From a virus, in IMG/VR virus record IMGVR_UViG_3300018933_000001, positions 32,001 through 96,000 of that record: a stretch of 64,000 bases of DNA; one strand, written 5' to 3'. Under the pieces are notes generated by a model. It worked only from the letters and a program-made list of their open reading frames with translations, searched no databases and was not told where the DNA came from. Position numbers and translations under genes: made by a program. Positions within the stretch are counted from its first letter, which is position 1. Each line of letters opens with the position of its first letter. This document shows positions 1-61,348 of the stretch, one piece after another.

Positions 1-402
1 GCTCAGAAAAACTACTCAAACGACAATACTAGAGTAGCTATTTCTTCCAATGGCGAAGTGATTAAAATAGAGTTGCACGGTCAAACGATAGCTAGTATAG
101 AGAATAACTTCCTATATCTTGACGATTGCGGTTATCAAACTAAAACTACCAAGTCAAGACTAAATCGCTTACTCAATCATTACCATCTACCTACTATCTG
201 CTCTAAAAAAGGTAAATGGTGGATAGGCAGCAGTCTCTGGTTAGGTCATACCAGTTTTATCCTAATTTTAGGTATGAACGGAAACAAAGTAAAAGAATCT
301 CTCCAATATGCAGCAGTGTTAGGGGGACAATCTCAACCACGACCCTATGATGCTGTCTTAGGTGGAAAGACATTAAAGAGTGGTCTAAGTTCTACTTTCT
401 AA
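1..402 (+). CDS. Hypothetical phage protein, 5'-partial
   Basis: Frame is open from base 1 (AQKNYSNDNTRVA...) into the listed ORF 58..402; contains a GYQTKTTKSRLN motif seen in small phage proteins. Confidence 0.7.
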   Translation, partial: AQKNYSNDNTRVAISSNGEVIKIELHGQTIASIENNFLYLDDCGYQTKTTKSRLNRLLNHYHLPTICSKKGKWWIGSSLWLGHTSFILILGMNGNKVKESLQYAAVLGGQSQPRPYDAVLGGKTLKSGLSSTF

Positions 403-409
403 TCTGTTT

Positions 410-458
410 GCTCAGGTTAAAGGTAACTATCTTATCTACGTTCGATTCGTAGCTGAGC
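410..458 (+). ncRNA. Mini-tRNA-like element 1 (acceptor stem + T-arm)
   Basis: GCTCAG(410-415)/CTGAGC(453-458) stem; T-stem CTACG(436-440)/CGTAG(448-452) around TTCGATT; D-like hairpin GTTA-AAGG-TAAC. Confidence 0.75.
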
Positions 459-513
459 TTTTACTTAGTTCATTCTAAGTTATTCGTCAACTAACAACCA
501 AGGAAAACCCATT

Positions 514-810
514 ATGTCTGTAATCAACAAACAAGTCAAGCAAGTATTATCTAATTTCCCTTACTACCTGTCTGATTGTTTGATAGTAGAAAAAAGTGAT
601 TATACTACTCAACTTAACAGAGAGTATGAAATCTATCGAGTTGAAGTGATTGTCAAAGGTAATGTGGGCTACTTAGATTTAATCACTACTATTAGTCAGT
701 CTTTTAAGGCAATAGGAGGATTCTACCGAGATAAGTCATCTACACACTCTATAGCTGAAACAATATGTGAGTCAATAGCCGTTCAAGCTTATATTGAGGA
801 AGCTTACTAA
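514..810 (+). CDS. Hypothetical protein
   Basis: 98-aa ORF with an AAGGA RBS, between mini-tRNA elements 1 and 2. Confidence 0.7.
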   Translation: MSVINKQVKQVLSNFPYYLSDCLIVEKSDYTTQLNREYEIYRVEVIVKGNVGYLDLITTISQSFKAIGGFYRDKSSTHSIAETICESIAVQAYIEEAY

Positions 811-820
811 TCTCTACTCA

Positions 821-905
821 ACTTCTAAAAATTGGTTACTAAGTAACATTAGTCTAGGTTCAATTGCTCTCAGCAAAAGCTTCCGAGCTTATTCCTAGTA
901 GAGGT
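821..905 (+). ncRNA. Mini-tRNA-like element 2, T-loop interrupted by a 28-nt insertion
   Basis: ACTTCTA(821-827)/TAGAGGT(899-905) 7-bp stem; CTAGG(854-858)-TTCAATT-[866-893]-CCTAG(894-898). Removing 866-893 restores a canonical 7+5 tRNA top half. Confidence 0.75.
863..893. mobile_element. Very small dispersed insertion element, copy 1 (25 nt + ATT duplication)
   Basis: ATT-GCTCTCAGCAAAAGCTTCCGAGCTT-ATT, identical to 48423-48453; sits in the T-loop of element 2. Confidence 0.75.
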
Positions 906-946
906 CTAGTTACTCAACAACGGGTAACATTATCAAAGGAGACAAA

Positions 947-1939
947 ATGACTCAAACAGTAACAGCACAAGAACTAATGTCAGAAAGTCCGTCAACAGTT
1001 AAGGACATTATCGACTTAATCCTAGCTGACACCGTAACTATAATAGTAAATACTGAGTTAGGCTACAAACTGCAATTCTCTAACTACTTCTCTCAATGCG
1101 GATTAGATGTAGTAGAACTCTACAAGACTGCTAAAGAAGATTTAGACTTATCTGCTGAATACCTAGCTTTACATCCTTTAGTAGAACAAGTCATTGACAA
1201 TATCGGTGCTGACTTATTCACTGATATGTTAGACACTGATGAAAATTCAGCTTACTCTGAGGTATTGAGATGTTTTGGTCATGGTGTATCTTTCTGGGAC
1301 AATCATGATTACAAAGACTTTGGATTTTTTGAGATGCCTAGATTGAAAACTACTCTAGAACATCCTTATGACATAGCAACTCAAATTCTAGATAAGATTG
1401 CAGAAGCTCATCCCGAGTTAGTAGGAGATGATGAAGAGGAGACGGAACCTGATAACGTAACTACCTACCAAATACCAACAATCTACTTACCTCTGATATT
1501 TAATGCCGATGCAACTGGGTTAGAAGATGAAGACATCGAGTTATTTGATGAGTTCATAGAAAGAGAGGGATTAGCAGACAATAAAGGTTACTGGAGTTAT
1601 CCAGATAATCAAGAGTCTTACTTCTCTCATGTTAACGATGTCACTAGATTAGGTAATGATGTGATTGACCTTCAATGGGCTAACACATCTACTCAAGACA
1701 ATGACTTTGATATTTGGTTATCTCAAAACTATATCCCTGCTGGTGAAGATGCTAGTAACGGTGGACAGTGGTACTTATCAGCTAATCCTAATGAGTTAAG
1801 GCACATATACTACTCAGAAGATAAAGTCCTAATGAGAAGTAGTTCAGGTCATCCAATAACACTGCATATTTCAGAGGAAAGAATCATTGTAGACACTGAG
1901 ACTGACTCTCGTGACTTCTACAATATTATTTACTCCTAA
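947..1939 (+). CDS. Acidic multi-domain hypothetical protein
   Basis: 330-aa ORF with a GGAG RBS; internal IPTIYLPLIFNADATGLEDED motif typical of small phage/plasmid early proteins. Confidence 0.75.
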   Translation: MTQTVTAQELMSESPSTVKDIIDLILADTVTIIVNTELGYKLQFSNYFSQCGLDVVELYKTAKEDLDLSAEYLALHPLVEQVIDNIGADLFTDMLDTDENSAYSEVLRCFGHGVSFWDNHDYKDFGFFEMPRLKTTLEHPYDIATQILDKIAEAHPELVGDDEEETEPDNVTTYQIPTIYLPLIFNADATGLEDEDIELFDEFIEREGLADNKGYWSYPDNQESYFSHVNDVTRLGNDVIDLQWANTSTQDNDFDIWLSQNYIPAGEDASNGGQWYLSANPNELRHIYYSEDKVLMRSSSGHPITLHISEERIIVDTETDSRDFYNIIYS

Positions 1940-1948
1940 TCAACAACA

Positions 1949-2005
1949 AGTCTAAAGTCAATGGTGGCAACTCCTTAGTTACAGAGTTCGATTCTCTGTT
2001 AGGCT
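1949..2005 (+). ncRNA. Mini-tRNA-like element 3 (miniature cloverleaf)
   Basis: AGTCTAA(1949-1955)/TTAGGCT(1999-2005); D-like GTCA-ATGG-TGGC; tiny arm AACT-CCTT-AGTT; CAGAG-TTCGATT-CTCTG (1982-1998). Confidence 0.8.
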
Positions 2006-2269
2006 CTTCCAGGTGTAAGATTAGTACGTATTGAGTACGGAGTAGTAGCTGATTTTACAGAAGCTAGACTTCCTTATACTTGCCCGAATTATCTAATGCT
2101 TGTCTTTAGAAGAGGTACACAAGAAATAAAAGAGGTGTGGAAAGTTGTGGGTGATATGTCCGGTGTTGACCTAACTCCCTTTCTTAATAAAATAGTTGAG
2201 AGAAAAGAAGGGGATTGGGAGTGTTGTAGTTATTATTTTACAGATGGAACAGTCATAAAAGTTACTTAA
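2003..2269 (+). pseudogene. Headless open frame following element 3 (5'-truncated gene, or a short gene from ATG 2096)
   Basis: Stop-free, protein-like frame 2003-2269 (LPGVRLVRIEYGVVADF...TVIKVT*) with no RBS or start codon at its 5' end. Confidence 0.45.
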
Positions 2270-2281
2270 CTACTCACTAAC

Positions 2282-2334
2282 GACTATTAGGTAAATAATA
2301 AGCCTGCTACTAAGGTGCAATGCCTTAGATAGTC
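2282..2334 (+). ncRNA. Mini-tRNA-like element 4
   Basis: GACTATT(2282-2288)/GATAGTC(2328-2334); TAAGG-TGCAATG-CCTTA (2311-2327), a variant T-loop. Confidence 0.7.
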
Positions 2335-2366
2335 TTTGCCCACTAACTACCTTAAGGAGACTTATC

Positions 2367-2699
2367 ATGAATAACGTAAAGATTTGTTCTGAGATAGTTT
2401 ACAATCCTGAAGCTTTTGATAACCGTTACGCAATCTATCTACCTGATTGTATTAACCTTGATATGGTAGACCAACTAGCTATTGAGTTAGATGCAGTTAA
2501 TTACTCTTTAACTAAATCTCATAGCGGAAAACTTTACCTCACAGCCGAGAAGTTTGGGAGATTAGAAAACCAAATTAAGGGAGCTTGGTTACAGCACATG
2601 GTTGATATTTATCCTTCAGTAATAGAGGATAACGAAACTCAACTAATACATATCGAGCATTGGCTATTTACTGAGGTTAGTTACATCAAGGTAGTTTAA
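2367..2699 (+). CDS. Hypothetical protein
   Basis: 110-aa ORF with an AAGGAG RBS. Confidence 0.7.
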   Translation: MNNVKICSEIVYNPEAFDNRYAIYLPDCINLDMVDQLAIELDAVNYSLTKSHSGKLYLTAEKFGRLENQIKGAWLQHMVDIYPSVIEDNETQLIHIEHWLFTEVSYIKVV

Positions 2700-2711
2700 C
2701 CTTTTCTATCA

Positions 2712-2749
2712 GCCCGATTGGTGTAGTAACGTTCGACTCGTTACCGGGC
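2712..2749 (+). ncRNA. Mini-tRNA-like element 5 (minihelix)
   Basis: GCCCG(2712-2716)/CGGGC(2745-2749); GTAACG-TTCGACT-CGTTAC (2726-2744); 9-nt GG-containing linker. Confidence 0.75.
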
Positions 2750-2790
2750 AATTACCTTATACTTCCTTTATCAATAGGGTTTACTTTACC

Positions 2791-5700
2791 ATGACTACTA
2801 ACTTAACAACTGCTCAAATCAAAACCAAAGCACTTTGCTCAGTTAATCTCTTAACTCTGATTGACCTATCTGCTTTCGATACACAAGTAGAGTATGTCAA
2901 GTTCAACATTCTACTAAGTAATACTCCTACTTCTCCTATTGAGGTTACTTATAAAGTAAGCAATGGGACTCCTGAGTTAGTAAATGATGTTAAAGCAAAA
3001 ATTCTTCAAACTATCTGTAAAGAGTTTGATACTGCTTTTGACTTTTCTATCTCTATTTCATCTGTACTTCATTTCTTCCCTGCTAGTAACTTATGGAATA
3101 AAGACAGACAAGTAATGGTACTTACCCCACAATATAAGGACATTAGCTCACAAGTACCTAACATCCCTCAAGAAGTTACTGAGATAGTAGAGCAAGTAGC
3201 AGAGGTCATCACAACATCAGAAGATAAAGATGATAGTGCTTCAATTCAGGAAGTAATATCACAACCTACTGATATTTCTATAACTTCCCCTACTCAGGCA
3301 GAAGACACACATATATCCGAAGTAGTAGAAGAACCTGCACAACCTCTACTCAACAAGACATCTACTAACAAGTCACTCAATATCTATGTGGCTCGGACTA
3401 ACTCTGAAGGGTTAACTCAGAAGATACTAATTGAGGATATGTTCTCATCTGAACTATTTAGTATTATTAAGCCCTGGTTAGTAGCTATTGGTAAGTTGTC
3501 GGAGTTCAAGAAAGAACTACAAGAGACAAAGCACAATAGTATTGTTCTCTACCTTAATCCTTCCTATGAATGGGAGATACGGGAAGTTACAAGAGATGTG
3601 CCTAGCAATTTATTAGAACAGTTTCTTGAGAAGACGAAGGAAGATAGGGAGTTATTGGGGGTAGAAAAGTTTTCTGATGAGCTTTTCCAATACTTAAAAG
3701 ATGTCAAGAAGTGGAGAGCTGAGGAGTTAATACAAGCTTACAGCATTAAGGCATCCGTAGAAGTAAATGGAAACTTTCATCTTCAACCAGTAACTAAGAA
3801 AGAAACAACCTTCAGACCTTTTAAGAAAGATGTCTTATCTGCCTATGTAAGTCGCATTACTAATAGAGCAGGAAGCATTGAAGAAAGAAGGAAAAAAGAT
3901 GCAGTTCCGGAGTTAGGTAGCTTAGAAAATATCTCACCTATCTTAGTAGAAGGTATTTACTTAGCTCAAAGTTATATTCTCTTTAATCCTCTGACATTAG
4001 AACATGAGAGAGTAGTAAGGAAAATAGCAATACAAAATGGTGGTAAATTCTACTATTACTCTGATTTATCTAAGGAAGATAGAGACTTACACAACATCGA
4101 ACCTAGTCTCTACTGTCCTAGTTCTATCCTAGAAACAGATGAAGAAATAGAAGCAGAAAGAAAAAAGGTAGAAGGTAAAGAGGTATTTCCCGACTTGACC
4201 ATCCAAATGGTGCAGTTTGAGTCTCTAGACCCAGATGGAAACACTTTAAAACTACAACACTACCAAAAGACATCAGGTATTTGGGTATTGTCTAACTCTA
4301 TTACCTCAACAGATAATCTTGCTAGAACTCCTGATGGTCAATTAGTTACTGACTTGAGATTTATTGCAGCACCAGTAGCTTTTCTAGGATTCCAACATCC
4401 CAACATTAAGGTCAAGGAATCATTCAGAAATGAAGATGGTAGTTTTGCTATATCTTCTACTATCCAAAGACAACCAACTAAAAAAGCTCGGTTGACTAAC
4501 TTAAGTGATGCTCGATTAGTAGCCCAGAACTCTCTTGAGTGGGTAGGATTTTTAGCTAATGTGCCTTGTATTGTCAACTTAGTTAACTCACATGACCATT
4601 GGCAGTTAGAAGCATTACCAATTCAAGAAATACCTTCTTATCCTCTGTTATATTGCTTAGCTAATAAGGCAATAGAAGGTTATTGGACTGAAGAAGACTT
4701 GCACACCCAGATTATCAGTCCATTAGACAAGGAAATGGAAAGACTAGGGGAGATAGCTGGAAAGACTCAAGATGTGGAAAAGTTAGAAAAGATAGGGAGG
4801 AGGGAAACTAATTTACAAAGATTGAGAAAAGCAGTTCTTAATCGTGAGAAGTTAGATCCTAAAGTGTTAATTGAGTGTACCAAGATAGTGTCTGAGGCGA
4901 TGAAATCTGCTAGTTACAGACCTACTGTAGTAGATAAGTATTACTCTCGTTATATATTGGCTCAAGTCTACTTCATAAGTACAAATGAGTCAGAGATAAC
5001 CTACTTGTTAGATGATCATATGAGTCACAAACGAGTAGCTAGTCAGGTAATTAGTGCTGTCCGATGGCTTAGTTTAGTGCCTAACAACCTACAAAAGCAG
5101 TTCCCCAAGCAAAAACCGACTATTGAGCAGTTGAGAAAGTTTCTTGTTTCTAAATTTAACGAGAAGTTCCGAGAAGTAGAGCTAAAAGTCAGAGAAAGTG
5201 GAGGGAAAATTCTACTAGACATTGTTTATCTCGATAAAATCCAAGTTACTCAGGTACTAACCATCAAAATGCCTGTTTCAGACGCTAAGAATAGAGGAAA
5301 AGTATCAACAAAAGTCAACGCAACCCCTAATTTTAGCGATAGAAGCGTGTTTGAGAAGTTTTTGAGGACTAAAGATGGGAGATTTATAGCTGAATGTCAA
5401 AATAAACTCATTCAATTAGTAGATATCTTCATCTCTCGCAGTTTTAACACTTTAGTAGGAGAAGGAAAAGTCGGAAAACAGCGGAAAGTATCGGAAATTA
5501 TTGGTTTTGAGAAGTCAAAGTCAGGATGGAGTGAGATAAAGAAGGGATTCGTCAAGCATCTAGTACCTTATAGCTCGGATTCAAGAGTAGAAGCAGGCAA
5601 ATTGACTTATTTAGCCACTAATCAAGTGCTTTCTTCTCAAGATTTAGAACATCTTATCATCCTAATAGCTGAAAATTGGAGTAATTGGAGCAGAAAAGAC

Positions 5701-6174
5701 CAACAAAGGATAAAAATTGGCGTTTCTTCTAGTAAGTCTCAAGACCCTGAGATATTAGTCCATGTTCTCACTAAAAAAATCCTCTCTGGTAATTTTGAGG
5801 AAGATAGAGAAGCTTGGCAAGATACTCTAAATTGGGTAGCTGAGGTTTGTAAGTCTTCTCCTAAGTATCGAGCAATAGGTTTCCGCTGTGATAATGGCGT
5901 GATTCTAACTCCGGATTGCGTCTATAACACTGATTTAGAAAAGTGGGAACATAGAATCAAAATAAACCTAAGTAATCTATTTCTTGACTCAAATGCAGGA
6001 AATATTGAGGCTTGGTTGAGCAAGTCAGTGGATAAACTTTACGATTCATTAGAGAAAATAAAACCTAATTGGGAGGAGACTAACAAATCGGTTAAGGAAC
6101 ATTTAGCTAACTTACATGATTCTCACGGTATCTGTATGCAAGTAGAAAGAAGTAAACTGGAGATACTTGTCTAA
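2791..6174 (+). CDS. Large hypothetical protein (1127 aa)
   Basis: Long uninterrupted ORF; no catalytic motif recognised. Confidence 0.85.
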   Translation: MTTNLTTAQIKTKALCSVNLLTLIDLSAFDTQVEYVKFNILLSNTPTSPIEVTYKVSNGTPELVNDVKAKILQTICKEFDTAFDFSISISSVLHFFPASNLWNKDRQVMVLTPQYKDISSQVPNIPQEVTEIVEQVAEVITTSEDKDDSASIQEVISQPTDISITSPTQAEDTHISEVVEEPAQPLLNKTSTNKSLNIYVARTNSEGLTQKILIEDMFSSELFSIIKPWLVAIGKLSEFKKELQETKHNSIVLYLNPSYEWEIREVTRDVPSNLLEQFLEKTKEDRELLGVEKFSDELFQYLKDVKKWRAEELIQAYSIKASVEVNGNFHLQPVTKKETTFRPFKKDVLSAYVSRITNRAGSIEERRKKDAVPELGSLENISPILVEGIYLAQSYILFNPLTLEHERVVRKIAIQNGGKFYYYSDLSKEDRDLHNIEPSLYCPSSILETDEEIEAERKKVEGKEVFPDLTIQMVQFESLDPDGNTLKLQHYQKTSGIWVLSNSITSTDNLARTPDGQLVTDLRFIAAPVAFLGFQHPNIKVKESFRNEDGSFAISSTIQRQPTKKARLTNLSDARLVAQNSLEWVGFLANVPCIVNLVNSHDHWQLEALPIQEIPSYPLLYCLANKAIEGYWTEEDLHTQIISPLDKEMERLGEIAGKTQDVEKLEKIGRRETNLQRLRKAVLNREKLDPKVLIECTKIVSEAMKSASYRPTVVDKYYSRYILAQVYFISTNESEITYLLDDHMSHKRVASQVISAVRWLSLVPNNLQKQFPKQKPTIEQLRKFLVSKFNEKFREVELKVRESGGKILLDIVYLDKIQVTQVLTIKMPVSDAKNRGKVSTKVNATPNFSDRSVFEKFLRTKDGRFIAECQNKLIQLVDIFISRSFNTLVGEGKVGKQRKVSEIIGFEKSKSGWSEIKKGFVKHLVPYSSDSRVEAGKLTYLATNQVLSSQDLEHLIILIAENWSNWSRKDQQRIKIGVSSSKSQDPEILVHVLTKKILSGNFEEDREAWQDTLNWVAEVCKSSPKYRAIGFRCDNGVILTPDCVYNTDLEKWEHRIKINLSNLFLDSNAGNIEAWLSKSVDKLYDSLEKIKPNWEETNKSVKEHLANLHDSHGICMQVERSKLEILV

Positions 6175-30187: not shown

Positions 30188-32523
30188 CTGTCTTGGTGTA
30201 TCTACTTTTTAACTCCGGAGGAAAAACATGGTCAGCTTTGGATTTTACCACAAACCTACAGTTATCAGTCAAGAAGAGTTTAGGATTCTTTCATCTATTG
30301 GATTAGAGGAAGATGGGGCTATCTCTAACAACTATGTACCTCAAGATGATTATTTCATGTTCTTAGGAAGAGAAGTAGGTACTAAACAAGGTCTACGTAC
30401 TGAAAAGCAAATACTTAATGCTTGTAGATTGCTTCAAGTAGATAAGGTACTGAGAACACCTAAAAACTCAATACTAAGACTCCGACTCCGAGCTAATCTA
30501 GTAGTTCAAATAGGAGATAGTGTAGTCTACTTTCAGACTAAAGCAGGGGAAGTAGCAGCTAATGAGTATGTAAATAATTGTGTAGGTAGAAAGGTAGGAA
30601 TCTATCATCGCCGAGACAATAAGGAGGATAAACCAGAAGGCATTGAAGACTGTTACTTAGCGCCGGGAGTAATTTACCTCAACACTACTTATGGAGAAGA
30701 TACTTTAGCTCTATTTCTTTCAGAGTTATCTACTTGGCTCAAATGTCCTGTAAAAAAAGAATATCGAGAGTTATTAGCTTACTTAAGGACTAAAGCTACT
30801 AAGAAACATATCACTTCTCAAGCACTAGAGTCTATCTTTGGTAGAAAAGTGATGGAAAGAGTTTCTACTTTGAATGTTTTTTATCCAATAGAAATGGGAG
30901 GTGGTTATGTCAGACTCAACTCAGAAACCCAGATGCAACCAAACTACAGATAAGGATATCGTGATTCTTGTCCTAAATGGCAAAACTCAAAAGCCTTGTA
31001 GTAGAGATGAAGCTTTAACTACTGTGGCTAATTTAGATGACCAAACAACTACTTGGAGCATAATCTCATGACTGTTACTACTTTGACCGTTTTACCGTAT
31101 ATTTTCCCAATCGTTGAATTAGCTATTTCTGATAGACAAACAGATGTAGTAGAAAGAAACAATCTACTTGAAGACTTCCTTCTCTCTAAATTTGACGAGA
31201 TGAAAGAGCTACCTGAGTCATTCAACATTAATGATTTAGCTACTTACTGTTTTGGGAATCAGTATCAAGCCAGTTATCTGCAAGTACGAAACTTCATTAT
31301 CCGAACTAAAGAAGATTTGAAGATTTGTAATAAGGATGTTTTATCTACTGGACTTGCATTAGTATTCGATGAAGGTCTTGAGCTAAAAGAAGCTTGTAAG
31401 AAAGTTCATAAACATTACCGTTCAGGAGGAGCTTATCTCTTTAGTAGAAAGTTTCTGTTCATGCTTTTACTAACTAAGTCTGTTGATTTTCGGATGTTCA
31501 TTCGTAATATTCTAGATGATGAGGGAAAACAAGTCTATGATGTTCCTCATAATTTAGAGGAAAAGTACAACCGAATCACTGATGCAATGTTAGCTGCTTA
31601 GTAGTAATCTAATCTTAGGAGGTGGGATAAAACTCATCTCCTACACTTATTTAACTTATGGAAGAAGAAAAGCTTCACGTTTACTTAATGGCTATGGGGT
31701 TATTAAAAGCTAATAGTCATCTAAGTAGAAAACAATTAGAACTTCTACTAAAAACTGATTCTGATAAATATAGTTTAATGTTCTTTCCTACTGAACCAGG
31801 AATAGACAATCAAGTAAATGCTAGAGTTACTCATATCCAAGATATATTTCTAGCTTATCAAATCTGCTATACTCATTTGCTTTCCTTATATGAAAGACCT
31901 ATTACCTCTATCTGAAGAGTTAAAAGAAAAACTAATAAATGTTCTTAGAGAAACAGTCCAAGAGCTATCTCAGCATAAAGATATTTACTCTACTGCTTTC
32001 CGACTTTACTTTACTGAGTTAGGAAAGATACTAAACAATACTGAGGGATTGGATAGTGAAGAGCTAGTGGATGAGGCAAATATACTTATGGGTGTAATAT
32101 CTGAATACATATTAAATGAAGGAACTATGTACGAGCTAGTAGACTTAGATGAAGATGTTGTAGAATTAGATTAGATGTCTCAGCTTAACCGTTATGACTC
32201 CTGGTATTACTCTACCAACTAAAGAAATCCGAGATATGTTTGAGGATATCTACCCGAGAGAAGTAGATAGCTGGCTATTTGCGTCTTACAGGTTAGGGCT
32301 TCTAACAGTTCTAGTAGAAGGAACTTTTCACATGGAAATTCCTAACAAAGACCCGGAAACTGTAACTGCTTTTAATTCTGGTTATTTAGATGGAATAGCT
32401 CTTAAAAAAAGAAGAAAAGATTTACAGAAGTCTATACCTGTGTCTACTAAACCTACTTATAGTTATCCTCCTACAAAAGAATATCACTCTCCTTTTTAAT
32501 AGTTTTCCACTCAACAACTCTAT

Positions 32524-48231: not shown

Positions 48232-49523
48232 TGGAAATACTATTTTGGACAACTATTATTATCTCTACTGTCTGTGATTATATAATCTGGGGCTATTTAC
48301 ATCCTTGGATTTTTGTAATTATAACTTGTGTAATCTGGACAGCTTGGTACTTTATCTACTATATGGATATTGATGACTAAGCTTCATTTAGATTAGGAAA
48401 ACTTATCAAGAGGGGTTATTAGATTGCTCTCAGCAAAAGCTTCCGAGCTTATTAGCTCCTCTTATATTTAATTATGATTAGTAATGAATATGCGTTTTGG
48501 AAATGGTTTAAGAAAAATAAAAGTAGTTCTTTTAAACTGGAGCAGTTCGAGGAAGGCTATATTTGGTCTTCTTTAAATAGTAAAGGTGAATGGGAGGGGT
48601 CTGATATGTGGTTTGATACTCCTTACGATGCAATGATAGACTTCTTTTCTAACTTAATTTGTTGTGAAGTAGTTGAGAAGAACTCATGAAAAATAATTGG
48701 TACATTTCTATCCCAGGATTGTTAACAGGTTCCGTAATGTCTGTTTTACTAATAATACTTCCTTTTGAAATTGCAATATCTATTATCTTCTCATTTTTTG
48801 TTGGATTAGTTGTGGGTCATTATTTATTAAATCAGAACTAAATATATGTCATTACTAAAAGTTACGATTCATTTATTTTTAGTTGCGTTAATATTAACGG
48901 TTGTTATAGGAACATTCTCACCTATTCTTGCGGTAGCTTTTATAGTCTCTTACGTTATCGGTTTCAGTGTTGGGTTTATACTTGATAAGAACTAAAATTA
49001 TGGATTTCTTTGTTTGGGTTGGATTTTTCTTCTTTTTAGTATTTGGAATCTTGATGCTGATAGAGTTTATAGAAGGTAGCTGATTCCATATCAGCTATTG
49101 TAGTCCCTTTCATGCTTTGTCTAATTTATGCTGTTCTAGTGACAATTTTACTTAGATTCTATGATTAAAGTTTACTTATTACTAGGACTTATCTGTTTTG
49201 TGTATATCATAAGTTTTGCTTATTTGTTGTTTTTATTAATTGTATGAATGCAATAGATTTACTTACCTTAGGATTTACAGCTACTATCTATGCTGTGGCT
49301 TTAGGATTCCTGATTTCTTTATTGGTGAGTAAAGATGACTTATTTTGAATTAATAATCGTAGGAATTTTAGCAACAGCCATCTACTCCCTTCTTTTTGCT
49401 TTTACTTTAGATTGGATAGCTAAAACAGACTATAATATTTCACCTTTCCTAATAGCTGGATTTTTTGGAATAGTTATCTCTGTGATTTTAGTTTCTCTCA
49501 AAGTTCTCTTAGTGGTAATTTAG
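48228..49523 (+). other. Cluster of tiny hydrophobic (membrane) ORFs
   Basis: ORFs 48228-48380, 48686-48841, 48846-48995, 49000-49083, 49161-49247, 49244-49348, 49335-49523, each essentially 1-2 TM helices, closely spaced or overlapping. Confidence 0.6.
48423..48453. mobile_element. Very small dispersed insertion element, copy 2
   Basis: Identical 31 nt to 863-893; sits in the loop of hairpin AAGAGGGGTTA(48408-18)/TAGCTCCTCTT(48453-63). Confidence 0.75.
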
Positions 49524-61276: not shown

Positions 61277-61348
61277 GGAACCTTGACATAGTGGTTGTGT
61301 AGCTGGCTTTTAACCAGTGTTAGGAAGGTTCGATTCCTTCAGGTTCCA
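61277..61348 (+). tRNA. trnK: tRNA-Lys(UUU), no encoded CCA
   Basis: GGAACCT/AGGTTCC acceptor, D-arm ACAT/GTGT, anticodon GCTGG-CTTTTAA-CCAGT, T-arm GAAGG-TTCGATT-CCTTC, discriminator A. Confidence 0.92.

Follow-up and report, generated by a model that had tools for sequence, protein, structure and literature searches.

What are the small folded elements that separate the first genes of the early operon in the virus record IMGVR_UViG_3300018933_000001, and what do they do there? We analysed 64,000 nucleotides of this record (positions 32,001 to 96,000, hereafter the window), part of a 146.5-kb genome with direct terminal repeats, 33% G+C and genes nearly all on the plus strand. The first 2.8 kb of the window hold five small genes and the start of a gene encoding 1127 amino acids, and each of the gaps between them contains an element that resembles the top half of a tRNA: an acceptor-like stem is stacked on a T arm, and the anticodon arm is missing. 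One more element of this kind, the sixth, precedes the first gene, and these are the only ones in the genome. The structure of the elements is under selection. As to their function, we consider it rather probable, judging from the sequence, that they are sites at which host RNase Z, and probably RNase P, would cut the early RNA and free mRNAs with protected 5' ends. The elements are as follows (window coordinates unless stated):

409..459, plus strand: element 1, with an acceptor of 6 base pairs (7 with a terminal U.U), a 4-base-pair D-like hairpin with an AAGG loop, and the T-loop TTCGATT.
821..905, plus strand: element 2, with a 7-base-pair acceptor, a linker containing GG and the T-loop TTCAATT, split by an insertion.
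863..890, plus strand: the insertion in the T-loop of element 2, 28 nucleotides long (a 25-nucleotide core plus an ATT duplication).
1949..2005, plus strand: element 3, with 7+5 base pairs, a 4-base-pair D-like hairpin with an ATGG loop, a second small hairpin and the T-loop TTCGATT.
2282..2334, plus strand: element 4, with 7+5 base pairs, the T-loop TGCAATG (the class with G at position 55) and a D-like stem with a long A/U loop.
2711..2750, plus strand: element 5, with a terminal A.A, a 5-base-pair acceptor and a 6-base-pair T stem (12 stacked positions), and the T-loop TTCGACT.
Genome 31884-31900 (window -116), plus strand: T arm of the sixth, or leader, element, ahead of the first gene.

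Five elements in these gaps had been proposed by a first-pass annotation, and their places, T-loops, T-stems and G-C loop closure all hold, as does their start 7-12 nucleotides past the upstream stop codon. Some details needed revision. Element 1 is best read with 6+5 base pairs, or 7+5 if the terminal U.U is counted; the coordinates of element 2 stand, with a T-loop that is interrupted by 28 nucleotides and not continuous; and five is the right count for the window, to which the element lying outside it must be added. Element 5 has a 9-nucleotide linker with GG and no D stem.

The elements can be recovered from the sequence by their T arms. A strict scan of both strands of the window (5-base-pair stem, T[TG]C[GA]ANN loop, 5-base-pair stem) returned five sites, namely elements 1, 3, 4 and 5 and the real tRNA-Lys at 61277, with zero sites on the minus strand; element 2 was missed because its T-loop is split by the insertion. 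Genome-wide this motif, loose as it is, is not enriched (14 sites vs 12.4 +/- 3.4 in shuffles); its sites are clustered, with five of them, one being the leader element, in 2.9 kb of one strand vs about 0.12 expected. We also built a covariance model with a 7-base-pair acceptor, a free linker and a 5-base-pair T arm from a seed of 24 elements of related genomes, which was used in place of an earlier 41-element MAFFT alignment that was out of register at the 5' strand. On the full genome of the window, this model found elements 1-4 (30.6, 24.8, 44.4 and 35.6 bits, respectively), weak matches to two true tRNAs and nothing else, element 5 scoring below its threshold.

The related genomes were found via homologues of the 330-amino-acid gene of the operon and comprise one IMG/VR contig and eight contigs from metagenomes or the Sequence Read Archive, which makes ten genomes with that of the window; a phage collection contained no near-identity match to a 6.2-kb query and no protein match to the 330-amino-acid gene. 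All nine relatives share the same synteny, with a minus-strand gene of about 240 amino acids, a non-coding leader of 1.3-1.7 kb, 6-19 small plus-strand genes separated by gaps of about 100 nucleotides, and a gene of about 1150 amino acids. Each relative contig carries 3-12 T-arm hairpins on the plus strand of this early region, most of them abutting an acceptor stem, and almost none on the minus strand. The covariance model, a check that the first-pass annotation had proposed, gave 58 matches (57 distinct sequences) in the 258 kb of the ten genomes, every one of them on the plus strand and in the stretch from the leader to the gene of about 1150 amino acids, with up to eleven elements per operon. 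It found no element in two Nodularia phages, an empty search of a kind that is weak evidence.

The selection on RNA structure that the first-pass annotation had suspected is clearly visible across the ten genomes. In the fitted alignment, 96.5% of the stem cells form standard pairs, vs 60% with shuffled partners and 25-57% in slid controls, and 11 of the 12 pairs have changed on both sides. Since a fitted alignment favours its own model, we ran RNAalifold on plain MAFFT alignments of orthologues: for element 1 (seven orthologues) it recovered the acceptor, the 4-base-pair hairpin and the T arm, with 3 of 15 pairs compensatory, and for the orthologues of element 3 the same three helices, with 7 of 16. 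The orthologues of element 5 in two relatives (L003 and L013) likewise carry compensatory T-stem changes. The pair that closes the T-loop, G53-C61, is G-C in all 57 distinct sequences, as in tRNA, and in the seed sets T-loop positions 1, 3 and 5 are always T, C and A, respectively; G occurs at position 3 in three element 3 orthologues that the model detected afterwards. The elements thus combine a 7-base-pair acceptor on a 5-base-pair T stem (12 stacked pairs in the model alignment) with G53-C61 and U54, C56 and A58. They do not form a cloverleaf, their linkers being 9-52 nucleotides long with no arm that has a 7-nucleotide loop.

The elbow of the tRNA appears to be kept as well. A compact D-like hairpin (4-base-pair stem and a loop of 4-5 nucleotides ending in GG) is present in 27 of 58 elements vs 10.4 +/- 2.9 when linkers are shuffled, and the second T-loop class, with G at position 55 and including element 4, is mostly without it. 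The D-loop and T-loop covary: a D-loop GG goes with C56 in the T-loop (14/14), and a D-loop GC with G56 (3/3, all orthologues of element 3). The latter combination would be the Watson-Crick elbow pair G19:C56 with its bases swapped and fits a real L-shaped fold, the swap itself being perhaps a single evolutionary event. In tRNA, the elbow is a common contact point of RNase P, RNase Z and the CCA-adding enzyme (PMC4810234).

A pointer to one of these enzymes lies just outside the modelled structure. All 57 distinct elements have U at position 74, next to the discriminator at position 73; a further U follows at position 75 in 42 of them and A in 13, and only one has G at position 73. In the window, positions 73 and 74 correspond to 460 and 461 in element 1, 906 and 907 in element 2, 2006 and 2007 in element 3, 2335 and 2336 in element 4, and 2751 and 2752 in element 5. 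The last of these fits the rule when it is read as 2711-2750, 6+6 with a terminal A.A, which is the better reading of that element and aligns its U74 with the others. In Bacillus subtilis, according to a summary in PMC10100781 that cites Pellegrini 2012, RNase Z acting on precursors without CCA is stimulated about 200-fold by a U no more than two nucleotides past the discriminator. The elements, which encode no CCA and have U74 in every case, have the features of CCA-less RNase Z substrates under the B. subtilis rule as summarized there. The same features are found in the three true tRNA genes of the phage:

61277-61348 of the window: true tRNA gene, Lys-UUU.
109635-109783 of the genome: true tRNA genes, Met-CAU and Pro-UGG.

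None of the three encodes CCA, and all have U74 and U-rich trailers as the elements do, which fits a host that matures tRNA 3' ends by RNase Z. RNase E has the cleavage consensus 'RN|WUU', and a reading of the U74 motif as a site of this type was dropped: U hardly ever occurs at position 76, and C is frequent at position 73.

Tandem tRNA-like T arms among small genes might also be what is left of a former tRNA cluster, of the sort that phages often carry amid small open reading frames, decayed and now functionless. We regard this as barely credible. All 58 copies in ten diverged genomes are without an anticodon arm and yet keep acceptor, T arm and, it appears, elbow by compensatory changes, a covariation that already contradicts decay; nor would neutral decay retain U74 in 57/57.

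A different question is raised by the way in which elements and genes are combined. Element types recur across genomes while the genes between them vary: the type of element 2 always lies upstream of the 330-amino-acid gene family and that of element 3 always downstream of it, in 9 of 10 genomes the element 4 type occupies the last or the penultimate place ahead of the large gene, and in all ten the array ends at that large gene. The elements could thus be joints for the shuffling of gene cassettes, either short shared homologies, as in the promoter/stem-loop cassettes of T4-type phages, or structure-specific recombination sites similar to integron attC. The gene content between elements does differ greatly among the ten genomes (6-19 genes), and an element type may be linked to one gene on one side and to varied genes on the other, as the element 2 and 3 types are at the 330-amino-acid gene. 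Against this, a tyrosine recombinase (PF00589), which was detected in all control genomes, is absent from the whole genome, and the suggestion in the first-pass annotation of structure-specific recombination sites lost its footing there. Selection on RNA-type pairing, G.U included, on one strand only, the tRNA-specific features and U74 would also be left without explanation. Because types recur while the genes between them vary, the elements do coincide with the borders of cassettes and may often be points of recombination. In the lack of a recombinase and given the RNA-specific selection, we see such shuffling as a consequence and consider it very unlikely to be the function.

The region past U74 supplies a further part of the argument for processing. 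A 5'-terminal hairpin with very few unpaired nucleotides shields bacterial mRNA from decay that depends on the 5' end. A hairpin starts 0-2 nucleotides past position 74 in 43 of 57 elements, and by a looser criterion in 49 of 57, vs 33-35% of random 40-nucleotide windows from the same regions. In this genome it is present at elements 1, 2 and 5, as listed below, and at the leader element, and not at elements 3 and 4:

463..480, plus strand: 6-base-pair hairpin, starting 2 nucleotides past U74 of element 1.
909..928, plus strand: 7-base-pair hairpin, starting 2 nucleotides past U74 of element 2.
2754..2780, plus strand: 7-base-pair hairpin (one G.U), starting 2 nucleotides past U74 of element 5 and ahead of the start codon at 2791.

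The first of these is predicted to be the 5'-terminal protective hairpin of the next mRNA. The stems of these hairpins differ from one element type to another; the element 1 type retains its hairpin though the following gene changes, and a relative (L011) has the same hairpin arrangement as that after element 5. Element 3 is without a hairpin in the window, though its orthologues elsewhere have one. The modules follow one another in the order tRNA mimic, discriminator, U74, hairpin, ribosome-binding site and start codon, an order that reads as what a design for a cut past the discriminator would look like.

Alternatively, the folds might act uncut and involve no host tRNA enzyme at all, serving as a 3' cap against exonucleases, as a translation insulator or as a site for a phage protein. 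Each of them starts only 7-20 nucleotides after a stop codon, where a stabiliser of the 3' end would be expected, and an RNase P cut at that point would leave the upstream mRNA unprotected. A plain hairpin would suffice for such a role, which leaves G53-C61, the T-loop consensus, the pair of the G19:C56 type, the 12 stacked pairs, U74 and the trailer shared with tRNAs unexplained, and we hold it to be quite unlikely. A variant in which RNase Z would cut and RNase P would not is a form of the processing reading. The elements were also considered as intrinsic terminators and rejected as such: a scan for G+C-rich hairpins followed by a U run gave 4 sites vs 4.0 expected, and the T arm of element 4 alone was flagged, weakly.

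Processing of this kind would require a long early transcript and a host equipped to cut it. The gaps show no excess of promoter-like or terminator-like sites, so a single long early transcript is plausible, and promoters of the sigma-70 type can be recognised near 30.75 and 30.84 kb in genome coordinates. About 300 nucleotides ahead of the first gene, at genome 31592-31603, lies the exact 12-mer GAACCTTGAAAA, which is the boxA of cyanobacterial 16S-23S spacers (PMC8461337). It is preceded by a boxB-like hairpin whose stem covaries, and the 12-mer or a one-base variant of it is present in 10 of 10 leaders. Together with the Kyanoviridae-type domain in the first gene, the boxA leader points to a probable cyanobacterial host and to an early transcript that may be under antitermination of the rrn type. 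Cyanobacteria have RNase P, a single RNase Z, RNase E and RNase J (PMC10989914). In the phage genome, searches run with positive controls found no metallo-beta-lactamase of the RNase Z type, CCA-adding enzyme, integrase or Ro protein; with neither an RNase Z-type nor a CCA-adding enzyme of the phage's own, any processing must be the work of the host.

Between boxA and the first gene, the leader also holds a structured RNA (genome 31616-31907; about 290 nucleotides, 228-329 across relatives). A 6-base-pair acceptor-like stem joins its distant ends and stacks on the T arm, in a topology like that of tmRNA, and is followed by U74 and a hairpin. RNAalifold on seven relatives gave 52 pairs, 14 of them compensatory, and the leader RNA has no match in Rfam; in three relatives the leader RNA is a different one, though its end is built in the same way. 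A candidate for a tmRNA-like tag, an open reading frame of seven codons after a Shine-Dalgarno-like motif, is not conserved in the relatives, which makes such a tag unlikely.

The sequences themselves display the folds, which are conserved and covary, as well as U74, the hairpins downstream and the confinement of the elements to the early operon; each cleavage step, the enzymes and the host are inferred. The early genes would be transcribed as one long RNA from the sigma-70-type promoters through the boxA leader, and each gap would adopt the shape of the upper half of a tRNA, its acceptor stem resting on a T arm and, in most cases, the GG of a D-like hairpin docking with the T-loop. The RNase Z of the host would then cut past the discriminator, aided by the invariant U74 if the effect summarized for B. 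subtilis applies. A hairpin preceded by only one or two unpaired nucleotides would consequently form the start of the downstream mRNA and protect its 5'-monophosphate end against RNase E and RNase J. A second cut, on the 5' side, would probably be made by host RNase P, and the two together would free a mimic RNA of 38-85 nucleotides, perhaps tailed with CCA.

The cutting of early RNA by host tRNA enzymes, already suggested in the first-pass annotation, is thus strengthened in part, by the covariation, by U74, by the hairpin past the predicted cut and by the lack of a phage enzyme. The RNase Z step appears to be specifically supported, whereas RNase P, for which the sequence offers no specific support, is only plausible. 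Several observations weigh against the scheme. Nothing around the 5' side marks an RNase P site, position -1 being C, U or A and the first pair mostly A-U, and a cut there would strip the upstream mRNA of a 3' protective structure. The stimulation by U74 is known, from the summary mentioned above, for the RNase Z of B. subtilis and not for the cyanobacterial enzyme. The T-loop of element 2 tolerates an insertion of 28 nucleotides, and element 4 and its orthologues have no downstream hairpin. A recognisable element occurs in only about half of the gaps of the relatives, so that the elements are not required at every boundary, and the claim that they punctuate every gene boundary holds for this genome and fails for the others. 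Finally, the copies share ancestry and can be grouped into roughly 20 sequence types, and raw counts for this reason overstate the statistics.

It might be asked whether the excised RNA, and not the cut, is the main product. CCA-tailed look-alikes could titrate host proteins that read the acceptor or the elbow, such as defence toxins acting on 3' ends, modification enzymes or the CCA-adding enzyme, a possibility that also needs cleavage by RNase P and RNase Z. The apparently complete elbow, tertiary pair swap included, goes beyond a minimal substrate of either enzyme, several linkers (for example in the element 4 type) are conserved beyond the needs of pairing, and the elements lie in the earliest expressed region, the usual home of anti-defence functions. 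On the other hand, acceptor and T-stem sequences vary freely across about 20 types, which argues against a single specific partner, no G3:U70 or other charging mark was seen, and processing alone accounts for the strict placement in gaps, for U74 and for the adjoining mRNA hairpin. A decoy for anticodon nucleases would need an anticodon loop, which the elements do not have. We therefore consider it unlikely that the mimics are the main product. Involvement of the Ro/Y-RNA machinery, also raised in the first-pass annotation, lost ground as well, with no TROVE gene in the genome and no match to Y RNA in Rfam.

A bolder extension of the processing reading, which we regard as possible but doubtful, is that the whole early unit copies a cyanobacterial rRNA operon. 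It would consist of a boxB/boxA leader, a structured leader RNA of about 290 nucleotides with a tRNA-type end, and as many as 19 genes, with mimic spacers, each with U74 and a 5' hairpin, between about half of them. Synthesis and maturation would be left to the rRNA and tRNA machinery of the host, and the released CCA-tailed mimics would form an abundant pool of small RNAs with a role of its own, for instance in absorbing defence toxins that hit tRNA 3' ends.

How do the elements relate to what is already described? ARAGORN called no tRNA in positions 1-3000. A search of the window, of its first 6.5 kb and of the leader with Rfam, at gathering and permissive thresholds, gave only the tRNA-Lys and chance-level snoRNA and miRNA matches; the Rfam tRNA model (RF00005) did not match the elements even at E up to 10, and the comparison with the tRNA, Y RNA and tmRNA models gave no match to the five elements. 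Full-text literature searches aimed at phage precedents turned up no account of tRNA mimics without an anticodon arm arrayed between the genes of a phage, and Rfam contains no such family; the first-pass statement that no phage system of this layout was known withstood both. The closest described system is that of the t-elements of plant mitochondria, which lie at the ends of mRNAs and combine a non-canonical tRNA-like fold with a conserved T arm; for these, ends were mapped, cuts by RNase P and RNase Z were partly shown and non-encoded C/A is added (Forner et al. 2007, PMC1920247). Like t-elements and the tRNA punctuation of mitochondria, the phage folds lie inside longer transcripts beside mRNA ends, with a tRNA-like shape and a conserved pseudouridine arm, and would guide RNase P and RNase Z. 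Unlike t-elements, they belong to a phage operon whose host is probably cyanobacterial, none of them retains the anticodon arm, the arrays are dense (up to eleven), and a module of U74 and a 5' hairpin is attached. The likeness that we propose would be one of function and not of homology.

Other systems share single aspects of this organization. The early gaps of phage T7 contain long double-stranded hairpins that are cut by host RNase III, leaving stable ends; these too are structured RNAs in the gaps of a polycistronic early transcript, whereas the elements described here are 12-base-pair stacks of the tRNA type with a T-loop, and both the enzymes and the logic of recognition would differ. 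The tRNA-like units of MALAT1 (mascRNA), MEN-beta and murine gammaherpesvirus 68 are cut by RNase P and/or RNase Z and free a small RNA that is not used in translation. They resemble the phage elements in being tRNA-shaped inside long transcripts, but they are eukaryotic or from an animal virus, with one module per transcript and a full cloverleaf; a comparable tRNA-like case exists in plants (PMC6152437). In having helices like an acceptor and T arm outside tRNA, the elements also resemble the non-tRNA substrates of RNase P. These include the C4 RNA of P1 and P7, the precursors of tmRNA and 4.5S RNA, and intergenic sites in Escherichia coli operons, all of them single, with no arrays and no RNase Z signature, and their Rfam models do not match the phage elements. 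Finally, the tRNA-like domain of tmRNA and the bacterial Y RNA YrlA likewise have an acceptor stem, a T arm and a D-loop analogue with no anticodon arm, but the phage elements have no tmRNA match in Rfam or ARAGORN, no G3:U70 and no conserved tag frame, and the genome has no Ro gene.

The genes that the elements separate, all on the plus strand, are the following:

1..402, plus strand: 3' part of the first gene of the operon (Kyano_Gp96-like; Pfam PF23790, E 6e-17), whose start lies just upstream of the window, as does the leader element.
514..810, plus strand: 98-amino-acid gene with homologues in the early operons of relatives.
947..1939, plus strand: 330-amino-acid gene (DUF6926), the marker for finding relatives.
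2096..2269, plus strand: 57-amino-acid open reading frame of uncertain coding status, with no homologue in any relative.
2367..2699, plus strand: 110-amino-acid gene.
2791..6174, plus strand: 1127-amino-acid gene, at which the array ends.

The 57-amino-acid frame, which starts 90 nucleotides past element 3, may be a recent replacement between elements 3 and 4, or non-coding. The 1127-amino-acid protein gave no lead in Pfam, PHROG or Atlas and is 73% identical to its homologue in the IMG/VR relative. Among cultured phages, Nodularia siphophages come nearest in their DNA polymerase, at 23% identity, and the divergent upstream gene gave only a weak helix-turn-helix hint.

The insertion in element 2 looks like a very small mobile element. 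Its core (866-890) has one exact second copy, at 48426-48450, two in the genome in total, with none expected by chance. Both copies (863-893 and 48423-48453 of the window) lie inside a hairpin loop, each with a 3-nucleotide ATT duplication, and the second copy of this self-pairing mini-element of 25 nucleotides sits in a terminator-like hairpin. The orthologues of element 2 in four relatives (L003, L006, L008 and L009) have an intact T-loop. Extra hairpins are found in the linker or beside the T-loop of some orthologous elements (L010:7272-7499 and L008:9376-9442), which indicates that insertions are tolerated outside the two stems.

If our reading is true, it adds a class of structured RNAs that annotation has overlooked, as tRNA finders and Rfam are blind to these elements, and a natural bacterial counterpart of the tRNA-spaced polycistrons of synthetic biology; the invariant U74 offers a single-nucleotide handle on the processing model. 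It would also account for the way in which long antiterminated early transcripts resolve into individually stable mRNAs in hosts such as cyanobacteria. Should the cuts be real, tRNA punctuation would not be limited to organelles, and in this phage lineage a compact, modular signal would have arisen that serves at once to cleave the message and to guard the end so created, by means of only two universal host enzymes.

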